From the NCBI GenBank assembly GCA_022771625.1, contig JALFCW010000057.1:7119-71118 (forward strand): a stretch of 64,000 bases of DNA, written 5' to 3'. The notes below the pieces were generated by a model. That model saw only the letters and a program-made list of their open reading frames with translations. It ran no database searches and had not been told where the DNA came from. Shown piece after piece: positions 19,515 through 43,245 of this stretch (position 1 is the stretch's first letter; the number at the start of each line of letters is the position of its first letter). Made by a program: the position numbers and the translations under genes. Source of the DNA: Prevotella sp. (lineage in GTDB: Bacteria > Bacteroidota > Bacteroidia > Bacteroidales > Bacteroidaceae).

Positions 19515-19524
19515 GGGGGGGGGG
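19515..19524. repeat. homopolymeric G10 tract immediately upstream of the island promoter
   Basis: Read directly as aatcGGGGGGGGGGttagg. It ends 25 nt before the -7 box at 19550, next to the expected -33 position. Confidence 0.85.
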
Positions 19525-19549: not shown

Positions 19550-19557
19550 TATCTTTG
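19550..19557 (+). promoter_or_regulatory. candidate -7 promoter box (TAtcTTTG) for the fimbrial island
   Basis: TATCTTTGCACCC lies 29 nt upstream of the ATG at 19586. The ABC-F promoter box has the same TTTGCACCC extension. Confidence 0.45.
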
Positions 19558-22173: not shown

Positions 22174-22194
22174 AATAATAATAAAATTATCAAT

Positions 22195-23514: not shown

Positions 23515-23534
23515 TACGACCCATTATTTGGAGT

Positions 23535-24806: not shown

Positions 24807-24846
24807 ATCAAATAAATAACGATTAATCATTAAAAATCACGAAATT

Positions 24847-27213: not shown

Positions 27214-27224
27214 AAAAACGAGTA

Positions 27225-29417
27225 ATGATAATGAGGAATTATCTAAAGAAGACATATATGGGCATTGCATCGCTGTTGGCTCTTATGAGCTGCAGCGACG
27301 GCAATGACATCCACACCTATACCGTGGGAGCGGAGGATAATGCCATCGCCCTCAGTATAGGTGTGGACAACTCCCCACTCACCCCTACCCCTAATCTTGC
27401 CAAAACAAGAGCAGCCGAAGACGATAATTACATCGCCTTGGCTCAAGGCACCAAGATGAGGCTAAGAGTGGAGGGAAAATGGAATGACTCTGAATTAATC
27501 AAGTTCACTGATTGTTCTGCTGATGCTGCAACAGGCAACAATACATATAACACAATATCCTCATATTCCCCAATGCTATATTGGGATGACTTCGGCACTG
27601 CCGATCCTTCAAATATAGACGGCAAGAATAATGGTCTCGCCATATATGGTGTGGCTGTTGATGGAAAGAAAGACAAAGCTCCAGATGTAAATAACTCAAC
27701 AGGAGAATCAACTACTGACCAATGGGGAGACCATTCATCTGAAGATAGCAATCTCCTTCCATGGAGTACAGAGGATAATTCAAATTCTACAGTTCTTGAG
27801 AGAGACCTCATAGTATCAAATAATTTAAGTAAGACAACGGCAGATGACCCTGGAAATCTTACATTTGAAGAGCATAAGGCGATTAATAAAAACCTTGAAA
27901 ACAAAGATGAAAAGCAAAGCCGCCTTATCTTCAAGCATGTTTTAAGCAAGTTTACATTTAACTTGAAAGCTGCCGATGGGTTTGAGAATTATAAGTTTAA
28001 GAGTAATCCTACAGTCACTCTTACAAGGAAAAAAGTAAGTGAAATGACCGAAGCGGATGATGGTGCGTATTGTTTAGTAGAAGGCAATATAAATATAAAG
28101 AAAGGTGAAGCAAAAGCAAACGAAAGCAATAAAAAAGTAATAAAGGCAAAGTACATATCAGTACAAACGGACAATGAATTTCAAGTTGTTTCTGAAGCCG
28201 CAATAGTATATCCAGGCACCGAAATTTCAAGTTCAAAGAATGACATCATTGCTCAAATCAATGCCGATGGCAATATCTATTATATCACTTCAGAGGCTAT
28301 AAGAACTGCAATAGGAGGAACAGACTTCAAGGCAAAGGCTGGCTATAATTATGTCTTCAACATAACTGTAAAGAAGACAAAGATTAATGTAACTGCAAGC
28401 GTTGAGCAGTGGAATGTGGTGACAGCAGATTATAAACCAAAGATTGACGTAACTGGAAACATTGGAGATGGCAATACATCTGCATCATCATTGAACAGCT
28501 TTAGTCTTTATCTGAAAGATGATGATAACGGACAATATGGCCTTTCAGAAAGTGAAACTTTCATTAAAGCAAACTCTGAAATAACAGTAAATACTACAGG
28601 AGGCAATCCTACATATACGTTCTCTCCTGATGTATATTGGCCTGACCACCAGACTCATTACCACTTTCGTGCAGTTTATCCAAAAACAAAATCTACTTCT
28701 GAAGGTTCTGCCCCTGAAGTCGTGAATGTGTCTAATACACAAGGCATAAAGGTAAAGAACTGCAAATATGAAGAGAATAATTATCCTTGCAACCTATTGA
28801 TTGGTGCACCTGAAATATCAAAAGGCACAATGTGTGGAAACAAGGATCATATATCTCCCACACAAAAGGTTGACATGTCAGAACATGGCATTTGTGCACG
28901 CGAAGGTTCTATCAACCTCAACTTCCGCTATATGATGTCGCAGGTGGTTGTAAATCTCAGCACGTCTGCGGATGGTGCTTCCAACAAAGTAAATATCGGA
29001 GCGAATACCATCGTGGAAATTGAAAATGCTCAAACTGAAGGATGGATTGACCTACATAACAGGAATATTGTGCAATATGAAGGTAGTACATCAACTTATA
29101 ATATGAACAATGAAAACGACAATTCACGCCATGATGCCATCATTCCTCAAAACATAGAATATCTTGTTTTTAAGATTTCAGTATATGATGAGAATAGTAA
29201 TGTAACTGATATATATCGTGCTAACATTAAGGATATACCAGTATATGTGGCAGATTCAAGCGGAAACAAAACAGGTGAAGCTAAGCACATTACCTCATGG
29301 GACTCTGGCCATAAGTATATTTATAACCTAAAGGTTACGAAGACTAAGGTGAGCATTACTGCTACGATTACGGATTGGGAAACGAGAAGCACTGACGAGA
29401 CAGATATATGGCTATAA
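27225..29417 (+). CDS. fimbrillin-family lipoprotein, tandem double module
   Basis: 730 aa. Lipobox LALMSC and AKTR(62)AA. Module 1 has FKHVLSKFTFNLKA ... VEQWNVVTAD; module 2 has FRYMMSQVVVNLST ... ITDWETRSTD. Confidence 0.7.
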   Translation: MIMRNYLKKTYMGIASLLALMSCSDGNDIHTYTVGAEDNAIALSIGVDNSPLTPTPNLAKTRAAEDDNYIALAQGTKMRLRVEGKWNDSELIKFTDCSADAATGNNTYNTISSYSPMLYWDDFGTADPSNIDGKNNGLAIYGVAVDGKKDKAPDVNNSTGESTTDQWGDHSSEDSNLLPWSTEDNSNSTVLERDLIVSNNLSKTTADDPGNLTFEEHKAINKNLENKDEKQSRLIFKHVLSKFTFNLKAADGFENYKFKSNPTVTLTRKKVSEMTEADDGAYCLVEGNINIKKGEAKANESNKKVIKAKYISVQTDNEFQVVSEAAIVYPGTEISSSKNDIIAQINADGNIYYITSEAIRTAIGGTDFKAKAGYNYVFNITVKKTKINVTASVEQWNVVTADYKPKIDVTGNIGDGNTSASSLNSFSLYLKDDDNGQYGLSESETFIKANSEITVNTTGGNPTYTFSPDVYWPDHQTHYHFRAVYPKTKSTSEGSAPEVVNVSNTQGIKVKNCKYEENNYPCNLLIGAPEISKGTMCGNKDHISPTQKVDMSEHGICAREGSINLNFRYMMSQVVVNLSTSADGASNKVNIGANTIVEIENAQTEGWIDLHNRNIVQYEGSTSTYNMNNENDNSRHDAIIPQNIEYLVFKISVYDENSNVTDIYRANIKDIPVYVADSSGNKTGEAKHITSWDSGHKYIYNLKVTKTKVSITATITDWETRSTDETDIWL

Positions 29418-31348
29418 TTATGAAGAAAGAAATATATAGATATATTGGAATGGTTGCTGTGGCATTGGGCTTTGTTGCCTGTGCCAACGACAATGGGGAT
29501 GCTCCATCAAATGATGGTGGCAAGACCCCCATTGACATTGCCGTAGCCTTTGTGGATGGCGAGATAGTCAGCAAAAGCTCGACAAGGGCTGTGGATAAGA
29601 CATTTGAGGCTAATGACAAGTTGGTGGCTCATTTGCAGCATGTGACCACATCTGAAGGAAATACCAGTCCTTTGACAGATAACAAATATTCTAAAACTGT
29701 TGTTTTCACAGTTAAAGATGGTTTTAGCATCACAGAAGAAAATAATACGCAAAAGACATCAGACATTACTCCTGATAGCCCTCTTTATTGGGACGACTTT
29801 AGTGATGCGACAAATGATATTCGCACTGGAGGACATGGATTAAGGTCAGCATGGGGATATTGCTATAATGGAAAAGAGAATTTTCCTGAAAGCAACAATC
29901 ATACTGATGAAATAACATGGGAAGCAGCAACAGACCAAAAATCCGGATTTAAGACTTCCGACCTCCTTTGGTCAAAGACTCAAGATCCTGTAAGTTATCA
30001 ACATGGCAATAATTCAGGCGATAGCCATGGCACAATCACTATCCCCTATACTCACGCCATGAGCAAGGCTACTATTGTACTTACGGCTGGGGAAGGCTTT
30101 GGTGATAAAGCATTTGAAAATACAACAATTACATTGAAAGGCGTGAATATTAAAGGTAAGTTTACTGCCACAACTGCTACTGTCGTAGGAACTAAGACAG
30201 GAGAAGAGGGGCAATATGAGACAGGTGATATTCAGATGCAGAAGAAAAGTACAGATGCTACAAATAATTCTGTGACCTTTGAGTGTGTATTTGTTCCTAA
30301 TACTTTATTGAATGACGGGAAATTGTGGGCCGAGATTAATAATGTAGCAGGCAATAACTACGAGATAAAACTTACTTCTGCTATGCTTGCTACTGAAAAA
30401 TGGGGAGCAGGCCCAACCAAATCAGGAGTAAACTACAAGCTCGCAGCCACTATCAGTAAGCAAAAGATTGATGTTGTGGCTCAGATTGCAGATTGGATTT
30501 ATAAGGAAACATCGGCTGACGGTAAGATTCAATTCTCTACGGATTTGACTGAAGTTGATTATAATGACATGATATCAGGAACATCGTATGACGTGTTTAC
30601 AAGTGAAAGCCAAACTTCTGGATATTCAAAATCAACAACTCGAAATTATACAGATAGCAAATGGACAGACTATCCTGTAATATATTGGCAAGGAGAAGGC
30701 AAGGGCTTGTATTTCCGTGGACTTGCAAAATATGAGAACAATCTTATAACATCAGTTGCAGGTAGCACATCCGCAAACCAAGGCACCGACCTTCTTTGGG
30801 CAACAACTCCTCAACATACAGGTAAGGATAATAGCGGTAACGATAAGACATATGAAGCAGGAGATAAGATTGACCCTCGTACATCATTCGTTCCGCTTAA
30901 GTTTGAACATGCCATGAGCAAGGTGAAGTTTGTATTAAAGACAACTGATGAGAATACAAAAGTGAATCTCGAAGGTGCCACATTGTCTATTCCCGGAATC
31001 ACAACAAATGGTACAATAGATGTGGCAAATGGGAATATAACAATTGGTTCTACTACTGCCGATCTTGCTCCTGTCGATAATACAGAATACATCGTAATTC
31101 CGCAAAATCTCGATGGCAAGAAGCTCACAATAACGCTTAATGATGCAAACGCAGATGGTAAGAAGACAACATATAGTATATTGCTCACAGACTGCAAGGT
31201 TGATGGAAATGCCATTTTATCATGGGAACGCGGAAATTCGTATGAATATACCATCACCCTTGCAAAAGAGGCAATACAATTCCGTGCCCTTATCAAGGAA
31301 TGGAATGAGAAGACAGGTTCGGGCGATGCATCGCTTGATTGGGATTAA
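29408..31348 (+). CDS. fimbrillin-family lipoprotein, tandem double module
   Basis: 646 aa; the alternative ATG at 29420 lies just past the upstream stop. Lipobox GFVAC and SSTR(60)AV. Module 1 has DLLWSKT, YTHAMSKATIVLT and IADWIYKE; module 2 has DLLWATT, FEHAMSKVKFVLKT and IKEWNEKTG. Confidence 0.72.
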   Translation: MAIIMKKEIYRYIGMVAVALGFVACANDNGDAPSNDGGKTPIDIAVAFVDGEIVSKSSTRAVDKTFEANDKLVAHLQHVTTSEGNTSPLTDNKYSKTVVFTVKDGFSITEENNTQKTSDITPDSPLYWDDFSDATNDIRTGGHGLRSAWGYCYNGKENFPESNNHTDEITWEAATDQKSGFKTSDLLWSKTQDPVSYQHGNNSGDSHGTITIPYTHAMSKATIVLTAGEGFGDKAFENTTITLKGVNIKGKFTATTATVVGTKTGEEGQYETGDIQMQKKSTDATNNSVTFECVFVPNTLLNDGKLWAEINNVAGNNYEIKLTSAMLATEKWGAGPTKSGVNYKLAATISKQKIDVVAQIADWIYKETSADGKIQFSTDLTEVDYNDMISGTSYDVFTSESQTSGYSKSTTRNYTDSKWTDYPVIYWQGEGKGLYFRGLAKYENNLITSVAGSTSANQGTDLLWATTPQHTGKDNSGNDKTYEAGDKIDPRTSFVPLKFEHAMSKVKFVLKTTDENTKVNLEGATLSIPGITTNGTIDVANGNITIGSTTADLAPVDNTEYIVIPQNLDGKKLTITLNDANADGKKTTYSILLTDCKVDGNAILSWERGNSYEYTITLAKEAIQFRALIKEWNEKTGSGDASLDWD

Positions 31349-31388: not shown

Positions 31389-32621
31389 GTGAAAGAGAAA
31401 TTGAAAAAGATATTTATATACATAATTATATGTGTGGTAATGCCGATGATGTTCGCCTGTTGTGCAGGTGACGACGGCTTAGAGGGCAAGGCTGAGGCTT
31501 TGCCCGGGGGATTGCCAGTGCTCTTTAGTTCGGGTGCTGGCGATGCCTCCGTCTCCACTCGTGCCACAGTGCCTTATATGGAAAACGGCGGGCGGTTTGT
31601 ATGCCGAATGTATTATCAGGGAAACGTGGGAAGTGAGGACTTCACCAACTATACCGAGGCTTGGCTCAAAGTGGATAACAACTATGGCAATTCGGTATAT
31701 CGCAAGAAGGACTTCAGTAAGCCAACAACAGATGATAACATTGACGGCTTCGGTTTCGACCGTGAGTCACAGATATTCTATTGGCAAAACCGCAAGCAGC
31801 ACATCTTTATCGCCATTGCCGACTATAATAAGCTCAAGACAAATGACGGAACGGATAATGGTACTCTCAACTTCAAAAACAGTGAGGAGATAGAAGGCAA
31901 ACCAATGGTGTTCGACCTTAGACGTAAGGACGGGATGAACTCGATAAGCGACCAGCAAGACATCATCATGGCGCATACCGAGATGTCGCCCGACAAGGCT
32001 ACTCCCGAGGGAAACAGGGTGAAACTGCTCTTCGGGCATTGCTTCGCAAAGGTGCAGGTGAATCTCAAACCGTTAGCCGACGGAGGCCTTGGCAATGACT
32101 TGAGATATGACCGAATAGACAAGGTGGAACTGCTGGGGGTGGCCGACTATGCCTATTTATATAACATTGATGTCACGTCATCACCATATAATATAAATAA
32201 TGTGAAGACTGAGGCAAAGAAGGTTGTGGCAAATGATTATCTCGATGTGGATATATCTGCCAATCCCTACTATACTTGCATCGAGACATTCAAGGCTCCC
32301 AAAGATGACGTAACCCCTGGATATATATCCACCCATGAGGTGATTACATTCGGACAGGTGGTGGCAATACGAGTGACTTGGCACGAAACCGACTCCGAAG
32401 GCAATACAACTGTCACTCACGTGGTGACCAAGAAAGTGGAAAAAGACGAAGAGCGACTACTGCCATCCGGTCAGTTGCATATATACAATCTCGAAATGCG
32501 ACGTGGAACACTCGCTATCATCAATGCCGAGATCCTGCCATGGACGGATGGGGAGACATATGCCACGGATGGCAAAATAACTGAAGAAGAAAGTGGAAAT
32601 ACCGAAGAGAATCAACAATGA
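31389..32621 (+). CDS. fimbrillin-family lipoprotein, single module
   Basis: 410 aa with a GTG start. Signal/lipobox IIICVVMPMMFAC, VSTR(58)AT, LLFGHCFAKVQVNLK and C-terminal ILPWTDGE. Confidence 0.65.
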   Translation: MKEKLKKIFIYIIICVVMPMMFACCAGDDGLEGKAEALPGGLPVLFSSGAGDASVSTRATVPYMENGGRFVCRMYYQGNVGSEDFTNYTEAWLKVDNNYGNSVYRKKDFSKPTTDDNIDGFGFDRESQIFYWQNRKQHIFIAIADYNKLKTNDGTDNGTLNFKNSEEIEGKPMVFDLRRKDGMNSISDQQDIIMAHTEMSPDKATPEGNRVKLLFGHCFAKVQVNLKPLADGGLGNDLRYDRIDKVELLGVADYAYLYNIDVTSSPYNINNVKTEAKKVVANDYLDVDISANPYYTCIETFKAPKDDVTPGYISTHEVITFGQVVAIRVTWHETDSEGNTTVTHVVTKKVEKDEERLLPSGQLHIYNLEMRRGTLAIINAEILPWTDGETYATDGKITEEESGNTEENQQ

Positions 32622-35600
32622 AAAAGATACTGACATATATCACTTTTGCCTTGTGCATCATCGCTACATTAAGCGGATGCTCGGAGAAACTGTCGGAATG
32701 GTGGAACAATGACGCACCTGACATGACTGGTGAGGAGATTGTGTTTACATCCCAACTGCCTGCAGTCGTGAAGACTACAACAAGAGCGACTTCGGTTGAC
32801 AACGAATTGCTCAATGGATATAAGCCTGTATCTGAAAAATACGAGTTCTCGATATCCATGTATAAGCAGGATGGAGAGAATTCCACTCTTATCGGAAATG
32901 CTGCCACATATACTCCGATTGATAACAATACAAATGGAGACCTCAAATCCACTGCCCCACTCCATTGGCAGGACAATGTTAACAAATATGGCTTTGAGGC
33001 TACGGCTGGAACACAATCACTTGAAGCCGAACAGGACACAAAGGAGAAATGGCTAAAGCAAGACCTGTTGAAGGGATTTGGATATGAGCCGCTTATTGAG
33101 ACTACGGGAGAGGGAGAATCCTCAACTTCGAATAAGATAGACAAGATAGACGCCCTCAACTATCGCACCAACAAGGAATGGTATAATGCCAATAAGACTT
33201 GGAAAGACGAGAATGGCATTAGTTCATCTGATGAATACAAGAAGATTCCGCTTTTCCTTCAGCATCAGCGAGCATTAATCACTGTGATACTGAAGGCTGG
33301 CGAAGGTGTTGACCGCAAGGATGTACTCGCCTCTACTGCCCAACAGAAAATTGCTACTAAGATATATAGCTATGATGACAGCCAGCAGGAGGAAATCCAA
33401 AAGAAATTAGAGATTACTCCATTGCAAGGCACGGCTACGGTTAACTATGACAAAATCGGAAATCTGCCCGCAGAAACGAATGTAGAAGTGGCTCGATATG
33501 ATGCCATCGTCATGCCTCACAACTATTTTACTAATGCCGAGGACGAGAAGATTTGCGCCATCAATGTGGCTAATCAGAAATTCTCGTTTTATGCAAGCAA
33601 TGACAGTAGATATGGCAAAAAAGAGGAGTTAAGCGAGAGTGGAAAAAAGGAATTCGAAGATGCATATAATCTACAGGCAGGCGACAACCTTGTCATCACT
33701 GCCACTCTATCTCGCGACAGTCGCAAGATACTGATAACGGCATACGTGCAGCCTTGGACGGATGTTATCACATCTTACGTTTGTGATGACTTCGGTTCAA
33801 CAGGTGATCCTATTATCATAGACAATAGAGAGCAACTTGAAGCATTCTTGAAAAACAAGGAAAAGAACGCCTCTGGATATGTGGCAGTGCTCAACACCAA
33901 TCTTACATTGGACGATTGGACATTATCGAAAGACCTCAATGCCATCCTAAACCTTGGAAATCACACTATCACTACGGATAATACATTATTAAACAATATA
34001 ACAGCATCGGGCAGTTTGATTAACGGAAATATCAAAGTGAAGAATACCCAGAGTGATGTCAAGACAATAATATGTGAGAATAATGAAGGACTTATCGACC
34101 ATATCAACATAACAAATGATGATGACGATAATCCCGCGATAGTGAGCCGTGCGGCTATCGCCATAATCAACTATGGATATATCTCGTCGTGTTCTTCGGC
34201 CATCAAGGTAATGGGTAAAGCTACTGCCGAAGGCGAAGAGATATTCATTGGCGGCATTGCGGCAGAATCGAAGGCAAATAGTGTGGGAATGTTGTCGGTT
34301 ATCAACAACTGCACTGTCACGGGTAAGGTGGATGCCAAAGATGGCACAACAGTGAAATGCGGTGGTATCGTAGGCAATGCCAATGGATATGTGATGAACA
34401 ATACATACGAATATGGAGTGACGCTGAATCAGGAAACAGATTCACAAGCCCGCTTTAAGAATATCGTTCATACCAAGGCTAATAACGATAATATTCAGTT
34501 AATAGCAACAGGTAATCAATGGCCGACTCAGACAACTAATACTCCGGTGGGTGGTGATGCAATCAATAATACAAGACCTAATCATGAACTATTTTATAAG
34601 GTTATCGACTGTCAGGACGAACTTGGAAAATTGGTTAATCCAGAATCTAATTATAATGATGCCAAATATTCATACCGAATAGCCGACAATTTTACTGTAT
34701 TGTCTGATACATGGGAACTTGGAAAGAAGAGCGACGAAACTAATAATACTAATGCCAAGAACGTGCTATTCACTCTCGACGGCAATAACAAGGCTATCAC
34801 TCTTGACGGAACAAAGAAGATATATTATAATGACAAAAAAAGTGAAGCAGATGATGATTCAAAAGCAAATATAACTGCCCCTATGCTCTTCGCCAATATC
34901 ACTGGCACTGTGAAAAACCTCACTCTGCTTTGCAAGCAGTCACTATATGGAATACCCGAATATGCTGATGGAGAAGACGGCAAAAACATGTCTTCCGACA
35001 TCTGTGCTCCCCTCGCCTATGCAGTCGTAGGTGGCACGATAAGCAATATCAAGGTGCATGCAGTTCCATATACCGATAGTGAAGGCAAAACGGTATATCC
35101 CAAGGTTGTTGCTGCATTGCCCTCCGGTCTTGTGACATGGGCATACAAAGGTGCTACAATCGAGAATTGCACAAGTGACATTGACGTGGAAATGAAATTG
35201 GCAAGCGATTATGCTGACAAGGACAAAACACTATTTGCCAGCGGATTGGTGGCGCAAGCGGCAGATGCCACTATCACGCAATGCAAATATGCTCCACGAG
35301 ATTATTTTAAGTTCAGCAGTACATATAAAACAACGAAGATATACTTCGGAGGCATTGTAGGAGGAACAGTGAAAAAGCAGATAGATAACTATTATCACAT
35401 TCCAAAACTCACAATTTCCGACTGTGCAAGTTGGTATTCGCACGAGGATGGCGCTTATACTATCGGCAGTATAATAGGCAGAGCATACTACATTTCTGTT
35501 ACAGGTAACGAGAACGTTGACGGAGTAAACAAGACGGCATGCCAAGGTAATTGGTGGCCATCGGGAATAACTGGTGTTGGCAATATTTCGGCTGTTGGTG

Positions 35601-35662
35601 GCGACGAGAAGATTATTGGCAAGAAGAGTTCGGTCAATCCCGACGAACCAGTATTTGACTGA
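32618..35662 (+). CDS. fimbrillin-like N-terminal module fused to two GLUG-like repeat domains (candidate tip adhesin)
   Basis: 1014 aa with an ATGA overlap upstream. Lipobox ATLSGC, TTTR(56)AT, LQHQRALITVILKAGEG and VQPWTDV. Then GDPIIIDNREQLEAFL, FIGGIAAES and CGGIVGNANGYVMNN. A second unit follows (VIDCQDELGKLVN, FTLDGNNKAITLDG, ASGLVAQAA, YFGGIVGGT). Confidence 0.65.
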   Translation: MKKILTYITFALCIIATLSGCSEKLSEWWNNDAPDMTGEEIVFTSQLPAVVKTTTRATSVDNELLNGYKPVSEKYEFSISMYKQDGENSTLIGNAATYTPIDNNTNGDLKSTAPLHWQDNVNKYGFEATAGTQSLEAEQDTKEKWLKQDLLKGFGYEPLIETTGEGESSTSNKIDKIDALNYRTNKEWYNANKTWKDENGISSSDEYKKIPLFLQHQRALITVILKAGEGVDRKDVLASTAQQKIATKIYSYDDSQQEEIQKKLEITPLQGTATVNYDKIGNLPAETNVEVARYDAIVMPHNYFTNAEDEKICAINVANQKFSFYASNDSRYGKKEELSESGKKEFEDAYNLQAGDNLVITATLSRDSRKILITAYVQPWTDVITSYVCDDFGSTGDPIIIDNREQLEAFLKNKEKNASGYVAVLNTNLTLDDWTLSKDLNAILNLGNHTITTDNTLLNNITASGSLINGNIKVKNTQSDVKTIICENNEGLIDHINITNDDDDNPAIVSRAAIAIINYGYISSCSSAIKVMGKATAEGEEIFIGGIAAESKANSVGMLSVINNCTVTGKVDAKDGTTVKCGGIVGNANGYVMNNTYEYGVTLNQETDSQARFKNIVHTKANNDNIQLIATGNQWPTQTTNTPVGGDAINNTRPNHELFYKVIDCQDELGKLVNPESNYNDAKYSYRIADNFTVLSDTWELGKKSDETNNTNAKNVLFTLDGNNKAITLDGTKKIYYNDKKSEADDDSKANITAPMLFANITGTVKNLTLLCKQSLYGIPEYADGEDGKNMSSDICAPLAYAVVGGTISNIKVHAVPYTDSEGKTVYPKVVAALPSGLVTWAYKGATIENCTSDIDVEMKLASDYADKDKTLFASGLVAQAADATITQCKYAPRDYFKFSSTYKTTKIYFGGIVGGTVKKQIDNYYHIPKLTISDCASWYSHEDGAYTIGSIIGRAYYISVTGNENVDGVNKTACQGNWWPSGITGVGNISAVGGDEKIIGKKSSVNPDEPVFD

Positions 35663-35691
35663 CTAATATTTAAAAAAAGCAAGAACGATAT

Positions 35692-37476
35692 ATGAAGAAA
35701 CGGATATTATATATGGCAATGATGGCTGCGGCTTTTGCCTCATGTCAGGACAACACCACCGAAACAGAATACCCGCATGATGCCTCACTTGACATCAAGG
35801 TGGGGAGTATCGACTGTGGTTCTGCCGATGCCGTGGTGGTGGAGAATATTACCAAGTCGGCCACTACTCGTGCTTCACAAAAAGCAGAGGAAGTTGAATG
35901 GCTGAAAGATCCTTTGCTTAAAGGTATTGACGTGAGCTATTATCTAAGAAGTGACGAAAACAAAAACACGTCAACGGCTGTGCTAAAGCTGTTGCCGGAA
36001 ATTAATCAGGTTGCCGGAGATTCTACAAAATATTCTTTCAATTACAAAGATGAGAATGGACAAGAGACCCAAAAGCCTGCACAATGGAAAGGCAATGCTG
36101 GACATGTGTTTCATGGATTCTATATACCCGAAGGCATAAGCAACGGAGAAATAGGAAATCAGAGTGAGTCTGAGATTTCGAATGAACCAAATGCAGAGTC
36201 ATATTACGACAAACTATGGCGCTACCTCAGTATGCCGCCCAACCATGAGATTATGGCTACCGTGGGATATGTGCGTCTGCCGTTCCGCCACCGTCTGTCG
36301 CGCGTGTTGGCATACGTGCTTATCGACCCTGATCTCAAAACCTCAATTAAGGACAACATCATATCTTTTGAGAATGTGAAAGTGCTTGAGAAGGTTGAGG
36401 GCACAACTCCAAAATGGACAACAGCACGCAAAGTTGTGCCACATTCGATGGGCACATCCGGAAGTGTAAACAAGAAGTTGGAGCAGACAGATGAAAACTT
36501 CCTCGTATTCCGCAATACAACATCCAATACATTCGTTTATCCCACGGATGACGCATGGGCAAATGTTAAGGCGGCTTACGATAATAATAAGGAGAACAGT
36601 GGATATGAGGAGATTAATTATGGCAAAGTGCCTTGTTTCGACATTATCGTGCGCCCCACTTATACGTCATCGGCATTGGTGATGTATGATGAGGATATGA
36701 GCAACGGAATGAATGCCGCGAAATATGCTGATGAGACAAACAGCATCGACTTTGTGGTGGATCTCGTAAATGGTCTTTCATATAACAAAACGTTTAAGTT
36801 TGACCTCGACGCCAACTATCAAACTGCGGTCTTCCTGCGCATTAGTCGCGAGAAGGTGGATTACCAGACAATGGGTTCGGAACTGTGGCAGCAATACGAA
36901 GCCACCGACGGATATTATGGTGTGGATAACGACCTTAACCATCGCCTCTCGCTCGCCGGAGGCAGTTGGCAACGCGCTTATCGCAACTCTTCATTTAAAC
37001 CTGGAATAACGGATGGTGACTTCTATAAGGAGCAATATGTGGCTGGTACGAAATGGATTGAGATGTTCAAAAATGCAGTTATGCCCTCAGATACAATAAA
37101 GGCAAATATCCCAAGTGATAATCACTGGGGCGACTACTTTGTGCTCGACAAAGACATCACCATTAATGTGTCAGAATTTCCTGCCGATTTCATCTTCACA
37201 GGCCATCTCGACGGACGTGGATATACTATCACTTTAACAGGAGGAACTGATGACACTCGTTATCTCTTTGACGGACTGAATGGCACATACGATGCCGAAG
37301 CTGGACAAGCAAACTGCCACAAAGAAGGCGGAGTGATTGTTCCGGAAAAGGGTTATCGGGCAGAAGTAATGAACTTAAAGATAAAGGGAGGGAAGCTCTT
37401 TTCGTCTGCGGCTGAGGCAGACAAGGAGAACAAGATAACGGGAATAGTATATAATTGCAAGGAGGAGACGGAATGA
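35692..37476 (+). CDS. fimbrillin-like lipoprotein with a short GLUG-preamble-like C-terminus
   Basis: 594 aa. Lipobox AAFASC, ATTR(60)AS and LPFRHRLSRVLAYVLID. The C-terminus reads DYFVLDKDITINVSEFPADFIFTGHLDGRGYTITLTGG. Confidence 0.6.
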   Translation: MKKRILYMAMMAAAFASCQDNTTETEYPHDASLDIKVGSIDCGSADAVVVENITKSATTRASQKAEEVEWLKDPLLKGIDVSYYLRSDENKNTSTAVLKLLPEINQVAGDSTKYSFNYKDENGQETQKPAQWKGNAGHVFHGFYIPEGISNGEIGNQSESEISNEPNAESYYDKLWRYLSMPPNHEIMATVGYVRLPFRHRLSRVLAYVLIDPDLKTSIKDNIISFENVKVLEKVEGTTPKWTTARKVVPHSMGTSGSVNKKLEQTDENFLVFRNTTSNTFVYPTDDAWANVKAAYDNNKENSGYEEINYGKVPCFDIIVRPTYTSSALVMYDEDMSNGMNAAKYADETNSIDFVVDLVNGLSYNKTFKFDLDANYQTAVFLRISREKVDYQTMGSELWQQYEATDGYYGVDNDLNHRLSLAGGSWQRAYRNSSFKPGITDGDFYKEQYVAGTKWIEMFKNAVMPSDTIKANIPSDNHWGDYFVLDKDITINVSEFPADFIFTGHLDGRGYTITLTGGTDDTRYLFDGLNGTYDAEAGQANCHKEGGVIVPEKGYRAEVMNLKIKGGKLFSSAAEADKENKITGIVYNCKEETE

Positions 37477-40139
37477 AAAGAACACTATATAGTATATTGG
37501 TAATATTGGCAATGCTCTCATCATGCAGTGACGATGAATATGGCAAACTCACTGCCGAACAGGAGAGACTCATCGGTAAGGCGGTGAACTTCAACACCAG
37601 TATTGCCGAACCATTTGCCACACGTGCGTCTTACAATACTGACGGCGGTTTTAATGAAAACGACCAAATCACCATCTTTCGGCAGTATTCCAATGATAAT
37701 GGTGCAACCTTCGACCCAGAGAGCGAGGGCTACAGAGTGTATAGCTATCAGGCAAGAAACGTTACTGGAACTAACATCCGTATCAACACGTTGTGGAAGG
37801 TGAAACCAGGAAAACAAGGCTATGAGCCAGCTCATGGATCTATTCCGGCACGAGGAACATTCACACAAACGGAAGCCGACTCATTGACATGGGACGATGG
37901 TCGCACTGTGAGATTCCGTGCATGGGGAATGAGCAATCTCTCGGGATGTCTTGACAATGGTTCGTGGGACAGTTTCTATCCCGACTTCTATATGTCGTCG
38001 TGGGTGACTGCCTCTGGTCCTTCGAGCGATATTCCCCTCACTATGCGCCATCTCGGATGCCGTATAGCCATTACTCCACTTGCAGGCAACCAACTGCAAA
38101 AGATTGAGATATGCACTGAATATGAGGATTATATGCGCGAGGATAATGCCGACTCTGATGATAATGATGCAACAGACAAATGCTCGGAAGAAGAAGCCCG
38201 TAAGCGTGCTGATGAAGTGAAGAAAGTTTTCGAGAAGATGTGTATGCCAGGAGGTATCGACTTTGAAACTGGCTTGATGGCTATGAGTGCTTCATACAAA
38301 AATGTTCATGATAATATCAAGACCATCGAGCAAAAGACAGACCAAGAGCAAATGATAAAGTTCAATACTCTATCTGCATCTGATATTGCCACAAAAGCCG
38401 TCCGTCCTGTATTCAATAACAACAATGGTCATCGTTATCTTATCACTATTCCCCACGACATGAGTACGGAAGAGGCAGGAAAAAGATTGACATTGCCGCC
38501 ATATACCCGATTCCGTATCTATCTACGTGATGTGAATGATGGTGACAAGGGCACATCGGGATATGAGGGAGAATATCATATCTTTGCCTTGGACGACATA
38601 GCAAAGGTTGACGAAAACAGAAACGTAATTAAAGACGCAGAAGGAAAGCCAGTGAAGATGTTCCCCGATGGTCTTCCACTTATCGCAGGCTACAGTTATA
38701 GGTTTAAGGTGGGCTACCATTACAATTCTCTTAAGATTCTTGCCGACAATAACTTCTCTTGGGAAGTACAAAACCTCGATAATGCAAATCTTACAGACGA
38801 GAAGCAGGTTGAACCCACGAGCGATCACCCTTATAAATGGTGGAAGGAAGCCATCGACAAGTCAATATCCGAAGTACTGTCATCATCTGACAAGAGTTTT
38901 AATCCTGTATTCGAGATTAATACAGTGGCGGAGTTCTTTGAGTTTATCAAACTTGTCAACGGTACTGCATATAATTCCACTCCTGAATTCAAGATAGAAC
39001 GTGGAGAAAGATATACAGATGAAACTGCGGAAGGAAATATCAAGTATCGCTGGAAATGGTATAAGGTGTTGGAAGATGGGTCAAGAGGTGATGAAATATC
39101 CAAGGAAGATGCAGAACAGGCAGGATATATCTTCTATCACTCCTACTATCCAGCCGAGGGCGACAACAGTGCTTATTATATCGAGAACTATCTCGATGCG
39201 CCATACAGTTTCTACAGTAATCTCGTCAACCGAAAATTCAAGGTTGTGATAAATAAAGATCTCGACTTCCAAGACTTGAAGATGGCTACAATCGGCACTG
39301 AATCGACTCCCTTCCTCGGTGTCCTCGACGGGCAAAACCATGTGTTGAGTAATATATATATGTCATCGGGTTATCTCTTCGACTATGCCGGTTATTCTTC
39401 ATCAAACATGCATTCGTCTGCCTCGGGAGCGGTGATATCAAATCTCGTGTTGCAGTCGGAACAACCGCTTTGTGTGGTTAATCATGGCAAGGACGTGAAG
39501 ATTCTCGGTATTGCCCTTGAGACTCCAAGCGACAAGGCGGCATTCGGTGAGGAACTTATTGGCACAAGTTATCTCGTGGGTTGTATCAACGAGGGTGACG
39601 CCACCGTGGGGCTTGTGGGCAAGGCAAGCGACTTATATATGTATGGCTGTCTGCAGACGGCTGCCGGTATCAATGGTGGTGCATTGCTCGGCGAATACAC
39701 TGCGGGAGCGTCACAGTTCTTCGCTCCACAAGTGGGCAAGGTGATATGGGGGCGATTCATGTGCAACTACTTCGACATCGACCGCTCGCCCAATGCCGTG
39801 GCTGTGGGAGGGCATGGCGATTACACCTATCCCCTGCAGCAATATATCCGTGGCACAAAGACCTATATCCTGCGTGCCGTTGAGGACAATCTCATCACAA
39901 GTGAGGCCGACCTCGAAGCGCTCAAAGGCAAGGAGGCTCTGACTAAAATCTACGGTCTGGCTCCATGGAAGGCGATGAACTATGCCATTTATCGCTACAA
40001 CAACAGTTCCACTGGTGCGCTGTATCCTTGCACTGTGCATTATAAGATTAACGATACATACAACCACCGCTACCCATTGCTCCATAGTGGAGGGCCCACA
40101 GTGGAAAGCGGATGGAACGTGCTCAATTTGTTGAACTAA
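37473..40139 (+). CDS. fimbrillin-like N-terminal module fused to a GLUG-like C-terminal domain
   Basis: The track ORF starts at 37455. The ATG at 37473 (an ATGA overlap with the upstream stop) gives MKRTLYSILVILAMLSSC. FATR(51)AS and LTMRHLGCRIAITPL. The C-terminal region has INTVAEFFEFIKLVNG, FLGVLDGQNHVLSNIYM, VGLVGKAS and GGALLGEY. Confidence 0.6.
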   Translation: MKRTLYSILVILAMLSSCSDDEYGKLTAEQERLIGKAVNFNTSIAEPFATRASYNTDGGFNENDQITIFRQYSNDNGATFDPESEGYRVYSYQARNVTGTNIRINTLWKVKPGKQGYEPAHGSIPARGTFTQTEADSLTWDDGRTVRFRAWGMSNLSGCLDNGSWDSFYPDFYMSSWVTASGPSSDIPLTMRHLGCRIAITPLAGNQLQKIEICTEYEDYMREDNADSDDNDATDKCSEEEARKRADEVKKVFEKMCMPGGIDFETGLMAMSASYKNVHDNIKTIEQKTDQEQMIKFNTLSASDIATKAVRPVFNNNNGHRYLITIPHDMSTEEAGKRLTLPPYTRFRIYLRDVNDGDKGTSGYEGEYHIFALDDIAKVDENRNVIKDAEGKPVKMFPDGLPLIAGYSYRFKVGYHYNSLKILADNNFSWEVQNLDNANLTDEKQVEPTSDHPYKWWKEAIDKSISEVLSSSDKSFNPVFEINTVAEFFEFIKLVNGTAYNSTPEFKIERGERYTDETAEGNIKYRWKWYKVLEDGSRGDEISKEDAEQAGYIFYHSYYPAEGDNSAYYIENYLDAPYSFYSNLVNRKFKVVINKDLDFQDLKMATIGTESTPFLGVLDGQNHVLSNIYMSSGYLFDYAGYSSSNMHSSASGAVISNLVLQSEQPLCVVNHGKDVKILGIALETPSDKAAFGEELIGTSYLVGCINEGDATVGLVGKASDLYMYGCLQTAAGINGGALLGEYTAGASQFFAPQVGKVIWGRFMCNYFDIDRSPNAVAVGGHGDYTYPLQQYIRGTKTYILRAVEDNLITSEADLEALKGKEALTKIYGLAPWKAMNYAIYRYNNSSTGALYPCTVHYKINDTYNHRYPLLHSGGPTVESGWNVLNLLN

Positions 40140-40156
40140 ATAGTATTCGGAAAGAA

Positions 40157-41203
40157 ATGAAACATAATATATTGCTTTACATATCATTGGCGACAACGAT
40201 GCTGTGGAGTTGCTCTACTGACAACATTCAGGAGAGCGACAACAATCTGCATGGCGTAAGTCTATCGTCGTCAATCGTCTCGTTTGAAGGCGAACAGCAA
40301 ACTAAGGTTAACCTTGCCGGCAACGGATTTGAAGATGGTGACATGATTAGGATAAAGGTGATTTGTCCGTACGTCACTTCACAGGAAGCCGGAGAATCGA
40401 CTTACGGCGGCACTTATGACGGCTTCTGGGTACAGAAATGGAGAGGTTCGGGATGGACAAGCATACCCGACAGCGATGGTTTTGACTTCAATGGCGACTA
40501 TCAAAGGTCGGGCGGTTCGTCAATCATCGGTCAGGTGTTGTCGCAACAGACGCCCTACGTCTTCACCGCATCCACATGGACTGAGGAAAAGGTATTTAAA
40601 ATAGGCGGCAAGATGGTGGTGCAGTATGCCAACGTATTCCATGCCGACCAATCCAATCCCGCCAACTATAAGGCAAGCGATGTACTATGGGCGCAAAACT
40701 TCATGCAGACAGCCACTGACATGATACATTTCGACTTCCATCATGTGATGGCGGCTCTCAAGATAACTGTTGCTGATAATGTCACACTTTCCGATAAGGC
40801 TGTTCTCACAATAGAAAATATGCCCGACATCGACCAAGCCGAGATTATCGTGGGGGATATGTTTGCCGCCAAGAGTAAGGTGAATTCGATGTGTGGATAT
40901 GAGGAGAAACATAAATGTAGTGCAGAAGAGAATGGTAAGGCACTTGGCATTGGAGTGAATTCAAATATGGAATCTTCCACTACGAAATTTGAACAGATAT
41001 CCCAAACTGCCACCTACAAGGCAATGCGTAAGGAGAACACAAATAATGTGTATCAATTGATTGTTCCTCCATGCACGATCAAGAATCCCGTAGTATGGAT
41101 TCGTGATGGCGAAAACCGATGGAAGGTGGAACTTGGCAAGAAGATATTCGAAGCTGGCAAAATGTATAACATCACTCTTAATCTGCAATCCCAAACTGAA
41201 TAA
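40157..41203 (+). CDS. fimbrillin-family lipoprotein, small single module
   Basis: The track ORF starts at 40112. The ATG at 40157 gives MKHNILLYISLATTMLWSC (lipobox). QQTK(50)VN and FDFHHVMAALKITVAD. There is no C-terminal DW-type motif. Confidence 0.6.
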   Translation: MKHNILLYISLATTMLWSCSTDNIQESDNNLHGVSLSSSIVSFEGEQQTKVNLAGNGFEDGDMIRIKVICPYVTSQEAGESTYGGTYDGFWVQKWRGSGWTSIPDSDGFDFNGDYQRSGGSSIIGQVLSQQTPYVFTASTWTEEKVFKIGGKMVVQYANVFHADQSNPANYKASDVLWAQNFMQTATDMIHFDFHHVMAALKITVADNVTLSDKAVLTIENMPDIDQAEIIVGDMFAAKSKVNSMCGYEEKHKCSAEENGKALGIGVNSNMESSTTKFEQISQTATYKAMRKENTNNVYQLIVPPCTIKNPVVWIRDGENRWKVELGKKIFEAGKMYNITLNLQSQTE

Positions 41204-43245
41204 TGGCAATGAAAAATCTATCCATAAATATCCTCGCTTTTGCAATCTCCATGGCAATATGCGGAGCGTGCAGCAATGACTCTGACGACAATGTGAGCAC
41301 GCAGAATGCCAAAGTGCTCACTGGTATTAATGCGGACATATACGGCACTGATGCTGCCATCACACGCGCCTCAAACACCACCGAAAAAGAACCTATATAC
41401 GTAGGCAGGCTGGCGTTTGTGGGTGGCGACAAGATAGTTATGACCTCATTTCAGCGAACAGACAACCCAATAAGCGACTTTACCTACAATGACATTAGAT
41501 GGAAAAAGGGGGGAAATGAAGGTGAAACCGAAGGCGGATGGAATCGCGATAATGATGATTCGGAAAACAATGAAAAGAAGATTTATTGGAGCGATGCCGA
41601 AAACTATCACACCGTTGTCGGATATAGCATTCCACAGAAAATGCCTACAGAAAACTGGAGCAAGACAGCTGAAGAAAGTGTAAACAACTATGAAGGCCAA
41701 CTCACATTATCTGACAACAAAGTGAATTACAGCTCAAAGGATGATTTGACAAAGGATGATGTAGTGCTCACATATAGTAAGGAAATTAAGTCGGACGCAA
41801 CGGGTATTGCAACCATATATTTCCGTCATGCCCTTAGCAGTCTCACTGTGGATGTGAATATCCAAGGCTTTGCTGCCACTCCCGGTATGGGTGCCGAAGA
41901 GAAGGACAATGCATCGAGGGTGAAGGACCTCATTATACTTAAGCAACCATATAAATATATGTGGAAACAAACAAGCGATAGTGTTGAAACAATAGAAAAC
42001 GACGAATCAAAAGCTGATATAACGGCATTTACAAACAATTCAGATGGCGAAGGCAGCGGCAACGGAAGGCGTTTCTTTTTTCATGCGCTTGCCGTTCCGG
42101 GATTGCGTGACGCGATAACAATCAAATTTGATGTCACCTACCCTGACCCTCTAAAGCCAACAACTACAATAACAAACACTTATAAAGCCACTGCCAAAAA
42201 TGTTTTTTTCCTGGCTGGCAAGCGCACGACGATAAAGATTAACCTCAATCACGAGAACGAGAAAATCACCGTGGGAGCAATATATGATGACTGGGTGTTT
42301 AAGGACACACCCGACCAAGGTAATCTTGATAAAAATTCAACATATCTTGCTTCTACAGAAATGAGTAATATTAGATTGCATAATGAAGAGGGACTCACCA
42401 TTGATGATGCCACATGGCTATATATGGACGGCGAGAATATAAAAGATATATATGGAAATGACGGTACAAAGGATAAACCTTATACTATCTCCACCGCCAA
42501 CCAACTCTTGGCTTTCGCCTATGAGGTGAACAAAGGCGTAATGTCATTTGATGGCAAATATGTTCGCCTTGACGCATCCATACACATGCAGCCGACAACA
42601 TCTTCCACCAATGTGGAATGGATAGGTATCGGTTCAGAAGATCATCCCTTTGATGGCAACTTCGATGGAGGATTGCGCGATATATCTTATCTCAAGGGTA
42701 AGTCATTGTTTGGAAATATCAGTACAAATGCTATTGTTGAAGGCTTGTCGCTCAGCCGCATGATTGGCACTACGGATGGGGGCAGCATCGCCTGTGTCAA
42801 CAATGGTACTGTCTATGGATGTATGGTGAAAGGGGATGTCAGTGGCACTACGAATGCTGGAGGTATATGTGCCACCAACAACGGCACTATCATGGCATGC
42901 GCACATATCGGTGATGTAAAAGCCACAAATGAAACTGATACAAAAGCAGGAGGAATGGCTGGTGAGAACAATGAAGATGGCACTATCCTTGCCTCTTATT
43001 TCGCAGGCAACCTGACAGCCACCACAACATCGCCACAATGCTATTTCAATAGTGACCTATATACTCCAACTTCTGAAAAGAAATGGGCTAAACCGACAAT
43101 TGACATGATTATGCAGGCATTTGTAGATGATTTAAACTTTGAAATCACTGACAGCAGGACCAAGCAAAACCTTCGCAAATATCAGTTCATATATCAGCCC
43201 TCAGAATATCCGTCGCTGGTATCGCAACAAAAAAACGTGGAGTAA
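41203..43245 (+). CDS. fimbrillin-like N-terminal module fused to a GLUG-like C-terminal domain (candidate tip adhesin)
   Basis: 680 aa with a TAATG overlap upstream. Lipobox MAICGAC, AITR(55)AS, IYFRHALSSLTVDVNIQG and YDDWVF. Then KDKPYTISTANQLLAFAYEVNKG, PFDGNFDGGLRDISYL, AGGICATNNGTIMAC and AGGMAGENNEDGTILASY. Confidence 0.65.
   Translation: MAMKNLSINILAFAISMAICGACSNDSDDNVSTQNAKVLTGINADIYGTDAAITRASNTTEKEPIYVGRLAFVGGDKIVMTSFQRTDNPISDFTYNDIRWKKGGNEGETEGGWNRDNDDSENNEKKIYWSDAENYHTVVGYSIPQKMPTENWSKTAEESVNNYEGQLTLSDNKVNYSSKDDLTKDDVVLTYSKEIKSDATGIATIYFRHALSSLTVDVNIQGFAATPGMGAEEKDNASRVKDLIILKQPYKYMWKQTSDSVETIENDESKADITAFTNNSDGEGSGNGRRFFFHALAVPGLRDAITIKFDVTYPDPLKPTTTITNTYKATAKNVFFLAGKRTTIKINLNHENEKITVGAIYDDWVFKDTPDQGNLDKNSTYLASTEMSNIRLHNEEGLTIDDATWLYMDGENIKDIYGNDGTKDKPYTISTANQLLAFAYEVNKGVMSFDGKYVRLDASIHMQPTTSSTNVEWIGIGSEDHPFDGNFDGGLRDISYLKGKSLFGNISTNAIVEGLSLSRMIGTTDGGSIACVNNGTVYGCMVKGDVSGTTNAGGICATNNGTIMACAHIGDVKATNETDTKAGGMAGENNEDGTILASYFAGNLTATTTSPQCYFNSDLYTPTSEKKWAKPTIDMIMQAFVDDLNFEITDSRTKQNLRKYQFIYQPSEYPSLVSQQKNVE

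Follow-up and report, generated by a model that had tools for sequence, protein, structure and literature searches.

Putative type V pilins with beta-helix heads of the IgA1-protease type in a conserved gene block of Bacteroidales

Four proteins encoded in a 64,000-nucleotide stretch of Prevotella sp. DNA (contig JALFCW010000057.1, assembly GCA_022771625.1; hereafter the window) carry a lipoprotein leader and a pilin-like N-terminal region joined to a C-terminal extension, and full-length homologues establish that this fusion, proposed in a first-pass annotation, is real and conserved. Judged against known systems, the most likely reading, which we hold to be probable, is that the four are acceptor-only type V pilins, placed at the tip or as accessory subunits, or surface lipoproteins, in either case with a non-catalytic binding head. 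Among the adhesive filaments of Bacteroidales, type V pili are the main kind, and their ligands are known for Porphyromonas alone.

Results

Operon and gene conservation

The four genes belong to a type V pilus-like operon of 13 genes on a single strand (19586-43245 in the window; all features below are on the + strand), with a gene spacing of -28 to +40 nt and eleven genes for fimbrillin-like lipoproteins. According to Pfam, the upstream part (19586-31348) encodes a DUF3575 protein, a DUF5119-like protein and five fimbrillin-like lipoproteins; two pilin modules are found in three of these five. The distal six genes follow in the order plain pilin, three head-bearing proteins, plain pilin, head-bearing protein. 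The plain fimbrillin-like lipoprotein that opens this block, p31389 (31389-32621), matches Pfam Mfa_like_1 at 6.9e-9, and the one between p37473 and p41203, p40112 (40157-41203), at 2.4e-11; the probable start of the latter is the ATG at 40157, and orthologue matches to the longest ORF start at about aa 13-17.

Collinear full-length tblastn matches revealed that the six-gene order is kept in about 30 Bacteroidales species, all told a set of fibre-degrading gut and rumen hosts, including cultured Xylanibacter ruminicola, two strains of which carry the block. Each of the four head genes has its own orthologue at the same position in Prevotellaceae, Muribaculaceae, Bacteroidaceae-type and other Bacteroidales MAGs. 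A comparison of poly-G tract lengths was also attempted, and neither an exact look-up of the DUF3575 protein nor a metagenome scan for the promoter-proximal sequence gave a match.

All four ORFs are intact, and each has full-length homologues at about 40-97% identity, amounting to hundreds from independent assemblies (93 for p35692); those of p37473 include one named 'fimbrillin family protein [Xylanibacter brevis]'. Public annotation describes the four families as 'hypothetical' or 'fimbrillin family' only, and precomputed Pfam annotation does not flag the head domain. BLASTP among the operon proteins found no similarity of the four head-bearing proteins to one another. The first-pass annotation had read four such genes in a row as a sign of diversification. 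This is contradicted by the same-position orthologues across families and by the conservation of the heads, whose divergence does not exceed that of the pilin modules; recent paralogue diversification was rejected on these two grounds. The four genes are ancient, fixed paralogues.

Leader and pilin module

The common N-terminal start described earlier (lipobox, Arg site, F-x-H motif and W motif) holds across the orthologue alignments of all four proteins. Every sequence that aligns at the lipobox column has the Cys there (37/37, 34/34, 33/33 aligned and 30/30 aligned in the four alignments), the site after the first (anchor) strand is R or K in 31/37, 34/34, 34/34 and 31/31 sequences of the four families, and the F-x-H His and the Trp are collinear and do not vary in any of them. 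In two AF2 models the loop that holds the Arg has a pLDDT below 50 and comes after strand E41-46 or E42-48.

Foldseek searches with these models returned type V pilins, with 4qb7 (2.6e-10) and Mfa2/3/4 for p41203, and 4k4k (2e-8), Mfa3, FimA1 and Mfa2 for p32618. The fimbrial protein 4eps (BACOVA_04982, 497 aa), which we take to be BovFim1C, was also among the fold matches. Both p41203 and p32618 are thus predicted by modelling to have the type V pilin fold, a two-domain beta-sandwich. At the sequence level, none of the four proteins reached the gathering score of Pfam PF13149 (Mfa_like_1), and Pfam and NCBIfam scans of the four whole proteins returned nothing significant. Mfa_like_1 matches were found among the orthologues of p41203 (7/37), p32618 (5/34), p37473 (2/34) and p35692 (3/71); in the last family it is the most frequent domain family among the members, yet with only these three matches and a best E of 0.001. 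When the leaders were removed, hhalign detected no significant similarity of the N-terminal modules of p35692 and p37473 to those of p41203 and p32618, so that sequence could not demonstrate a pilin fold for p35692 and p37473. In all four proteins the chain runs 110-630 aa past the conserved Trp strand and there is no free C-terminal donor strand, which is consistent with the tip-pilin class, as this class lacks one.

Head units

A regular-expression search found all motif strings quoted in the first-pass annotation in their places. p32618 has cores of the type GG[ILM][VAC][GA] at aa 545, 582 and 911, and p41203 has them at aa 553 and 583. The complete coil, GG-x-x-G...G-x-I-x-x-C, is accordingly represented by three cores in p32618 and two in p41203, while it is degenerate in p37473 and absent from p35692. 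Elsewhere in the operon, the same search found a single GGLIT in p21001 and otherwise no head motif in the nine remaining proteins.

The largest protein, p32618 (1014 aa, 32618-35662; AF2 mean pLDDT 82), has full-length orthologues and consists of the leader, a pilin module (about aa 40-381), a conserved linker modelled with low confidence (aa 382-397) and two predicted beta-helix units. Unit 1 (aa 398-620, 33809-34477) begins with the preamble PIIIDNREQLEAF at aa 398, followed by GGIAA and GGIVG coils. Unit 2 (aa 661-970, 34598-35527), delimited by hhalign and AF2 strands, is larger and has its GGIVG core at aa 911. As the first-pass annotation had it, the two are homologous: unit 1 (aa 400-587) aligned with unit 2 (aa 662-916) at a probability of 93.1% (E 3.2e-7, hhalign).

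The next gene encodes p35692 (594 aa, 35692-37476), with a leader containing Cys18 and Arg60, a divergent putative pilin module, a conserved AGSSWQRAY region and a mini head (aa 483-594, 37138-37473). This head reads FVLDKDITI...FTGHLDGRGYTITL...LFDGLNG...VMNLKIKGG, with FTGHLDGRGYTI at aa 502, and amounts to the preamble and a few coils over about 85-110 aa, without GG repeats. The third protein, p37473 (888 aa, 37473-40139, ATG at 37473), also with full-length orthologues, comprises a leader, a putative pilin module to about aa 430, a preamble (aa 478-500) with an 80-aa insertion, a head (aa 590-776, 39240-39800) and an aromatic, conserved C-cap (aa 777-888); its head contains FLGVLDGQNHVL at aa 614 and the degenerate GG motifs VGLVGKAS and INGGALLGEY. 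Finally, p41203 (680 aa, 41203-43245; AF2 mean pLDDT 80), whose public homologues begin at the ATG at 41209, is made of a leader, a pilin module (aa 41-365), a linker, a beta-helix head (aa 421-625, 42463-43077) and a C-cap. Its head includes PYTISTANQLLAF (at aa 426), PYTISTANQLLAFAYEVNKG, FDGNFDGGLRDI (at aa 483) and the coils GGICATNNGTI / GGMAGENNEDGTI.

Profile-profile comparison with hhalign connected these regions. The C-terminal regions of p41203 and p37473 aligned at a probability of 97.7% (E 1.9e-12), the p37473 head corresponding to p41203 aa 453-624, and the p41203 head aligned with unit 1 of p32618 at 83.7% (E 8e-6). The mini head of p35692 matched p37473 aa 591-684 at 80% (E 1.4e-5) and p41203 at 19% (E 1.3e-3). 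The preamble motifs fall in register in these alignments. All five C-terminal units are linked in this way, and their resemblance is more than chance.

Fold of the heads

The beta-helix looked for by structure prediction was borne out in the AF2 models, in which the pilin fold is followed by a right-handed beta-helix, as one unit in p41203 and as two in p32618. The p41203 head is modelled as a ladder of 3-4-residue strands at a pLDDT of 90-97. Foldseek matched the p32618 model to the IgA1 proteases 7uvk (2.2e-3) and 6xjb (2.9e-3) at a probability of 1.0, and the p41203 model to 6xjb (2.2e-3) at 0.97; a phage 'putative IgA1 protease' was also among the fold matches (0.98).

In agreement with this, the p41203 family profile retrieved 3n6z, a 'putative IgA1 protease', from PDB sequences (E 0.003), and hhalign aligned p41203 aa 420-608 with 3n6z aa 43-247 at a probability of 97% (E 8.6e-11). 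Unit 1 of p32618 matched 3n6z at 80.7%, while the direct match was weak for p37473 (18%) and p35692 (about 1%). Searches of PDB sequences with phmmer (p32618 and p41203) gave no matches, and those with the family profiles of p32618, p37473 and p35692 gave nothing meaningful. The profile homology of the p37473 head to p41203 shows it, too, as a predicted beta-helix. Thus the earlier assignment of the extensions to a GLUG or IgA1-protease type stands for p41203 and p32618, on fold and profile, and for p37473, on profile, but p35692 has a mere truncated stub.

The Pfam Glug model (PF07581, gathering cut-off 20.5 bits), suggested as a check, did not reach its cut-off in any of the four proteins. 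The best scores were 12 bits (E 0.3, aa 545-571) in whole p32618 and 15.5 bits (E 0.023, about aa 838-857) in its unit 2 alone, and there was no match in p35692, p37473 or p41203. At E<=1, Glug matched 15/34 orthologues of p32618 (best 1.4e-4), 5/37 of p41203, 0/34 of p37473 and none in the p35692 family. The 3n6z fragment, tried as a Glug reference, was expected to score as Pfam Glug and did not; because of this, the label 'GLUG' rests on motif, fold and name, not on the HMM. The GG[ILM][VAC]G...G.I..C coil of PF07581 recurs here.

Discussion

Globular binding heads at the C-terminus are already known from type V tip pilins (bioRxiv 10.1101/2024.11.15.621889). BovFim1C of Bacteroides ovatus and the DGR-diversified BunT, BfrT and BthT have the same lipoprotein pilin module with a C-terminal, ligand-binding head, and their genes are, as here, distal in operons with anchor and stalk pilins. 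Their heads are lectin-like or C-type-lectin, whereas the head described here is a predicted right-handed beta-helix of IgA1-protease/GLUG type; a further difference is that the present operon has four head-bearing genes, one of them with two heads. We therefore regard this as a new head type and not, as the first-pass annotation had suggested, as a new class of tip adhesin. No paper that describes such a fusion came up in a literature search on GLUG together with fimbrillin, IgA1 protease or type V pili.

The proposed analogy to Mfa5 is sound as to position and fails as to domain content. Mfa5 and the Mfa3-Mfa4-Mfa5 tip complex of Porphyromonas gingivalis are likewise type V accessory proteins, encoded downstream and acting several together, and Mfa4 and Mfa5 have no donor strands. 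Mfa5 has a von Willebrand A domain and is dependent on type IX secretion. The four proteins here, unlike Mfa5, have lipoprotein leaders, which point to export via the lipoprotein route, and no vWA or type IX C-terminal domain match in Pfam or NCBIfam.

For the head, the comparison is with the M26 IgA1 metalloproteases of S. pneumoniae (6xjb) and G. haemolysans (7uvk), which have the same small right-handed beta-helix without protruding subdomains. Identity to these Gram-positive enzymes is 12-14%, their middle and C-terminal protease domains are absent here, and the beta-helix that stands in front of the protease in M26 enzymes is here fused behind a pilin module. Among sequence relatives with a solved structure, the closest is PDB 3n6z ('putative immunoglobulin A1 protease', 363 aa), which aligned as a beta-helix unit only, with no pilin-like part matched. 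The beta-helix of IgA1P is non-catalytic, binds IgA1 Fab, folds alone, is soluble alone and moves as a rigid unit (PMC7695701).

In the mechanism that we propose, the leader contributes the lipobox Cys together with a first beta-strand, after which comes an exposed loop that carries the conserved Arg/Lys, with the pilin module next; instead of ending in a free donor strand, the chain goes on into a predicted small right-handed beta-helix of the IgA1-protease N-terminal-domain/GLUG type. We infer that a cut at the Arg loop opens an acceptor groove, which would enable the head-bearing protein to take a donor strand from a plain pilin. Because the head occupies the C-terminus, the protein could not itself donate a strand canonically, and would therefore be placed at the end of a filament, acting as tip or accessory subunit, or be kept on the surface as a stalked lipoprotein. 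The beta-helix would be presented as a non-catalytic binding head, with a host or food glycan or protein as candidate ligand. Four or five candidate tip proteins per operon, however, exceed the need of one filament end. In p32618, the conserved linker (aa 382-397), right after the pilin module, could be an internal donor strand, which would allow the protein a place in mid-filament.

That same surplus of candidate tips, among eleven fimbrillin-like lipoproteins, lends some weight to the view that the four are stand-alone surface or outer-membrane-vesicle lipoproteins whose pilin-like fold is merely a stalk and never polymerises, the operon then encoding several surface proteins in place of a single filament. 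The absent donor strand and the failure of all four to reach the Pfam pilin cut-off fit this view, and vesicle-acting fimbria-like lipoproteins have been reported (PMC11225709). We nevertheless consider it rather unlikely, since a conserved loop for cleavage at Arg/Lys is difficult to account for unless the subunits assemble by strand exchange, since the operon is tight, has plain pilins among the head genes and carries upstream a DUF5119-like gene that may be of anchor type, and since an order fixed across families suggests a multi-subunit assembly.

Right-handed beta-helices are also typical of pectate lyases, GH28 enzymes and phage depolymerases, and the hosts of the block degrade fibre; the heads might then be enzymes on a pilin scaffold (a polysaccharide lyase or hydrolase, or a protease accessory) instead of adhesins. 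We find this improbable. Foldseek matches to such enzymes (4c2l, 3wwg, 7xzb, 8bwk), and others to tailspikes and the pectate-lyase superfamily, are weak, at probabilities of 0.1-0.4 against 0.97-1.0 for the IgA1P N-terminal domain, and the isolated heads match no Pfam enzyme family, including those with an enzyme-type beta-helix, even at E<=10. Moreover, conservation in the heads falls mainly on Gly, Asn and hydrophobic residues, the invariant ones being mostly structural, and the nearest relative to have been characterised is a binding and gating domain with no catalytic role. The idea that faulty assembly or frameshifts created the long ORFs, or that the motifs resemble each other by accident, as the lack of mutual BLASTP similarity and the sub-threshold Glug scores might suggest, is refuted by the hundreds of full-length homologues from independent assemblies, the gene order kept in about 30 species and the profile-profile probabilities of 80-98%, and goes against the confident AF2 models.

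Returning to acceptor-only pilins or surface lipoproteins with binding heads, a tentative extension is that the six-gene block, with two plain and four head-bearing pilins and five beta-helix units, builds a multi-headed tip complex or alternative tips and so represents an unrecognised, widespread adhesin class; we think this possible, although doubtful. If true, such adhesins would belong to the type V pili of Prevotellaceae from gut and rumen and of related Bacteroidales, a different conserved ligand could be recognised by each of the fixed heads, and the linker, as an internal donor strand, could let head-bearing subunits chain together.

The proteins are a conserved, so far unannotated variant of known pilus adhesins, with a putative function. 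The IgA1-protease-type head is a concrete module that can be expressed alone for binding tests, its IgA1P counterpart being soluble alone, and the presence of the six-gene block in cultured Xylanibacter ruminicola makes experiments feasible. Altogether, recognition of this head connects a so far uncharacterised domain (GLUG, 3n6z) with a scaffold for display.

Gene order and integrity of the four lipoprotein genes

The four genes described as encoding pilin-like lipoproteins with a C-terminal extension, or head (p32618, p35692, p37473 and p41203, named by ORF start), have intact ORFs of 1014, 594, 888 (counted from the ATG at 37473) and 680 aa, respectively, in which every string quoted by the first-pass annotation is present. 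Each protein has hundreds of homologues over its entire length. When one genome of each species was scanned, 36 loci were recovered, among them two cultured Xylanibacter ruminicola strains and MAGs of Prevotellaceae, Muribaculaceae, Cryptobacteroides and Bacteroidaceae. At all loci with enough upstream DNA the order p31389-p32618-p35692-p37473-p40112-p41203 is preserved (32–62% identity), p31389 and p40112 being plain fimbrillin-like lipoproteins. Full-length homologues and preserved gene order exclude a frameshift or an assembly artefact as the origin of the long ORFs. The four genes in a row had also been read as a sign of diversification. A recent diversification is contradicted, since all four are ancient paralogues and the orthologues of each occupy the same place in the gene order; orthologue identity is much the same in the heads (43–51%) as in the pilin modules (42–52%). 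Translation of p41203 likely starts at ATG 41209 rather than 41203, because public homologues have 676–678 aa, and that of p40112 probably at ATG 40157 rather than 40112, because orthologue matches begin at about aa 13–17 and a lipoprotein leader follows.

The block lies within 13 tightly packed genes on the plus strand (19586–43245, spacing -28 to +40 nt), preceded by a promoter-like, Bacteroidetes-type TAnnTTTG motif (19550–19557) upstream of the first gene. The products of the first two genes are a DUF3575 protein and a protein with a weak DUF5119 match in Pfam; 11 lipoproteins follow, seven with a direct match to the fimbrillin-like family Mfa_like_1 (PF13149). The nearest named homologues are from Prevotella, Xylanibacter, Muribaculaceae and Mediterranea MAGs, and beyond 43245 lie housekeeping genes (ABC-F ATPase, grpE and dnaJ, judged from translations). 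A run of 10 G at 19515–19524, the sole G run of at least 9 within the window, is located about 25 nt upstream of the TAnnTTTG motif and 62 nt before the first gene, and could act through slipped-strand phase variation to switch the entire operon. Besides, three upstream paralogues at 24847–31348 (788, 730 and 646 aa) share mutual BLASTP similarity; each contains two stretches that match Mfa_like_1, from which they appear to be tandem double pilin modules.

N-terminal modules similar to type V pilins, in part putative

Since BLASTP found no similarity among p32618, p35692, p37473 and p41203, their relationship was tested by profiles and structures. The pilin-like starts were borne out by alignments of diverse orthologues of the four families: the lipobox Cys, the His of the F-x-H strand and the Trp ending the N-terminal module are invariant, while an Arg (rarely Lys) about 30–40 residues past the Cys is found in 31/37, 34/34, 34/34 and 31/31 sequences. 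In AlphaFold2 models of p41203 and p32618 built from orthologue alignments (mean pLDDT 80 and 82, respectively), the N-terminal parts group in Foldseek with type V pilins, with matches to 4qb7 (2.6e-10), 4k4k, 3ufi, Mfa2 (5nfi), Mfa3 (5nf4), Mfa4 (5dhm) and the FimA1 prepilin (6jzk). The conserved Arg is in a low-confidence loop after a first strand, a prepilin-like arrangement.

For p37473 and p35692 the case is indirect, and their N-terminal modules are best called putative pilin modules. They have the conserved leader (hhalign E ~1e-5 across the first 60–130 residues) as well as collinear His and Trp motifs, Mfa_like_1 matches only 2/34 p37473 orthologues and three of about 70 p35692 orthologues, and one p37473 orthologue is labelled 'fimbrillin family protein' by one source. 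With the leader removed, hhalign gave no significant match among the four N-terminal modules.

Beta-helix heads with GLUG-like coils

The p41203 family profile matches PDB 3n6z ('putative immunoglobulin A1 protease') with E 0.003, from the PY-x-I-x-T-A-x-Q-L preamble, the conserved stretch opening the head, to the GG coils; hhalign of p41203 against the 3n6z fragment gave 97% probability (E 8.6e-11, 178 columns). The anticipated beta-helix was recovered in the p41203 and p32618 models, whose heads form ladders of 3–4-residue strands (pLDDT >90). Both models have matches to 6xjb and/or 7uvk, which are IgA1 proteases (E 2–3e-3, prob 0.97–1.0), to a 'putative IgA1 protease' of a phage and to right-handed beta-helices of a generic kind.

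Domain-level hhalign connects all head units: p41203 aa 453–624 with p37473 aa 590–776 (97.7%, E 1.9e-12), p41203 aa 425–589 with p32618 aa 397–588 (83.7%, E 8e-6), p37473 aa 591–684 with p35692 aa 483–566 (80%, E 1.4e-5) and, in support of the two units already noticed in p32618, aa 400–587 with aa 662–916 of that protein (93.1%, E 3.2e-7). Because of these links and of the D-I/L-x-(L/I) ... F-x-G-x-(L/F)-D-G-x-x-H-x-(I/L) preamble, which stays in register across the alignments, we assign two homologous units to p32618 and one each to p41203 and p37473. The mini head of p35692 consists of the preamble and a short stub without GG repeats.

The GLUG label holds in part. The Pfam Glug HMM (PF07581), a 28-residue motif with a cut-off of 20.5 bits, scores 12 bits on p32618 and at best 15.5 bits, on its second unit alone, both below the cut-off, and has no match in p35692, p37473 or p41203. 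At E<=1, 15/34 p32618 orthologues (best E 1.4e-4) and 5/37 p41203 orthologues (best E 0.012) have a Glug match, as against 0/34 in the p37473 family and 0/71 among the p35692-family members scanned. The 3n6z fragment itself (residues 43–311, the best match of the p41203 head) has no Pfam match, Glug included, at E<=10. Within the window the head domain does not formally belong to Pfam Glug; a fair description is a small beta-helix of the IgA1-protease type whose coils are GLUG-like, p35692 having a stub only.

Several segments beside or within the heads are also conserved. Right after the pilin module, the p32618 linker (aa 382–397, 33761–33808) shows the strongest conservation in the whole protein (62% identity among orthologues; C389, D391, G393 and G396 invariant), with pLDDT <50. 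In p35692, a strongly conserved segment of about aa 400–480 (36880–37140) separates the pilin-like module from the mini head; its invariant residues include W399, D406, Y409, G410, N413, S425-W-Q-R-A429 and T440-D-G442 (AGSSWQRAY...TDG region), and it matches no known family. Many p35692 orthologues (e.g. P0371, P0411, P0420) are 770–960 aa long, the window protein being a short form, and carry within the mini head, between HTITLT and LFxGLNG, a Tyr/Thr-rich repeat-like insertion of 130–330 aa. Finally, p37473 (aa 777–888, 39801–40136) and p41203 (aa 626–680, 43078–43242) both finish with a helix and a Tyr/Pro-rich motif (YGLAPWKAMNYAIY...YP and AFVDDLNFEI...YQFIYQPSEYP, respectively); these ends, aromatic-rich in p37473, have weak hhalign similarity (E 0.14) and may represent a C-terminal head cap common to both proteins.

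Predicted position in the pilus and role of the heads

In type V pili, the groove opens after the lipidated anchor strand is cut at the Arg loop, and the C-terminal donor strand of stalk and anchor pilins enters the groove of the preceding subunit, while tip pilins have no donor strand; in Mfa1, the loss of even one or two C-terminal residues was tested as critical to initiating strand exchange (PMC13655056). Retention of a cleavable leader would give the four proteins acceptor capacity, with a C-terminus buried in a 110–630-aa head, and they are best read as putative acceptor-only distal subunits, or as surface lipoproteins on a pilin stalk. The p32618 linker occupies the place where stalk pilins carry donor strands, and because of this location might conceivably act as an internal donor strand.

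As to function, the heads probably bind a ligand, and an enzymatic role appears quite improbable. Their characterised relative, the N-terminal beta-helix of IgA1P, is an independently folding, non-catalytic domain that binds the IgA1 Fab (PMC7695701); the isolated heads match no Pfam enzyme family even at E<=10, and their invariant residues in orthologue alignments are mainly Gly, Asn and hydrophobic, all of which argues for binding.

Altogether, the observation of the first-pass annotation is confirmed and its interpretation partly supported. The comparison with Mfa5 holds for position only, and Bacteroides has previously been shown to possess tip adhesins made of a pilin and a globular head (bioRxiv 10.1101/2024.11.15.621889). 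Instead of the new class proposed, these heads are a new head type on an already known pilin-plus-head architecture.
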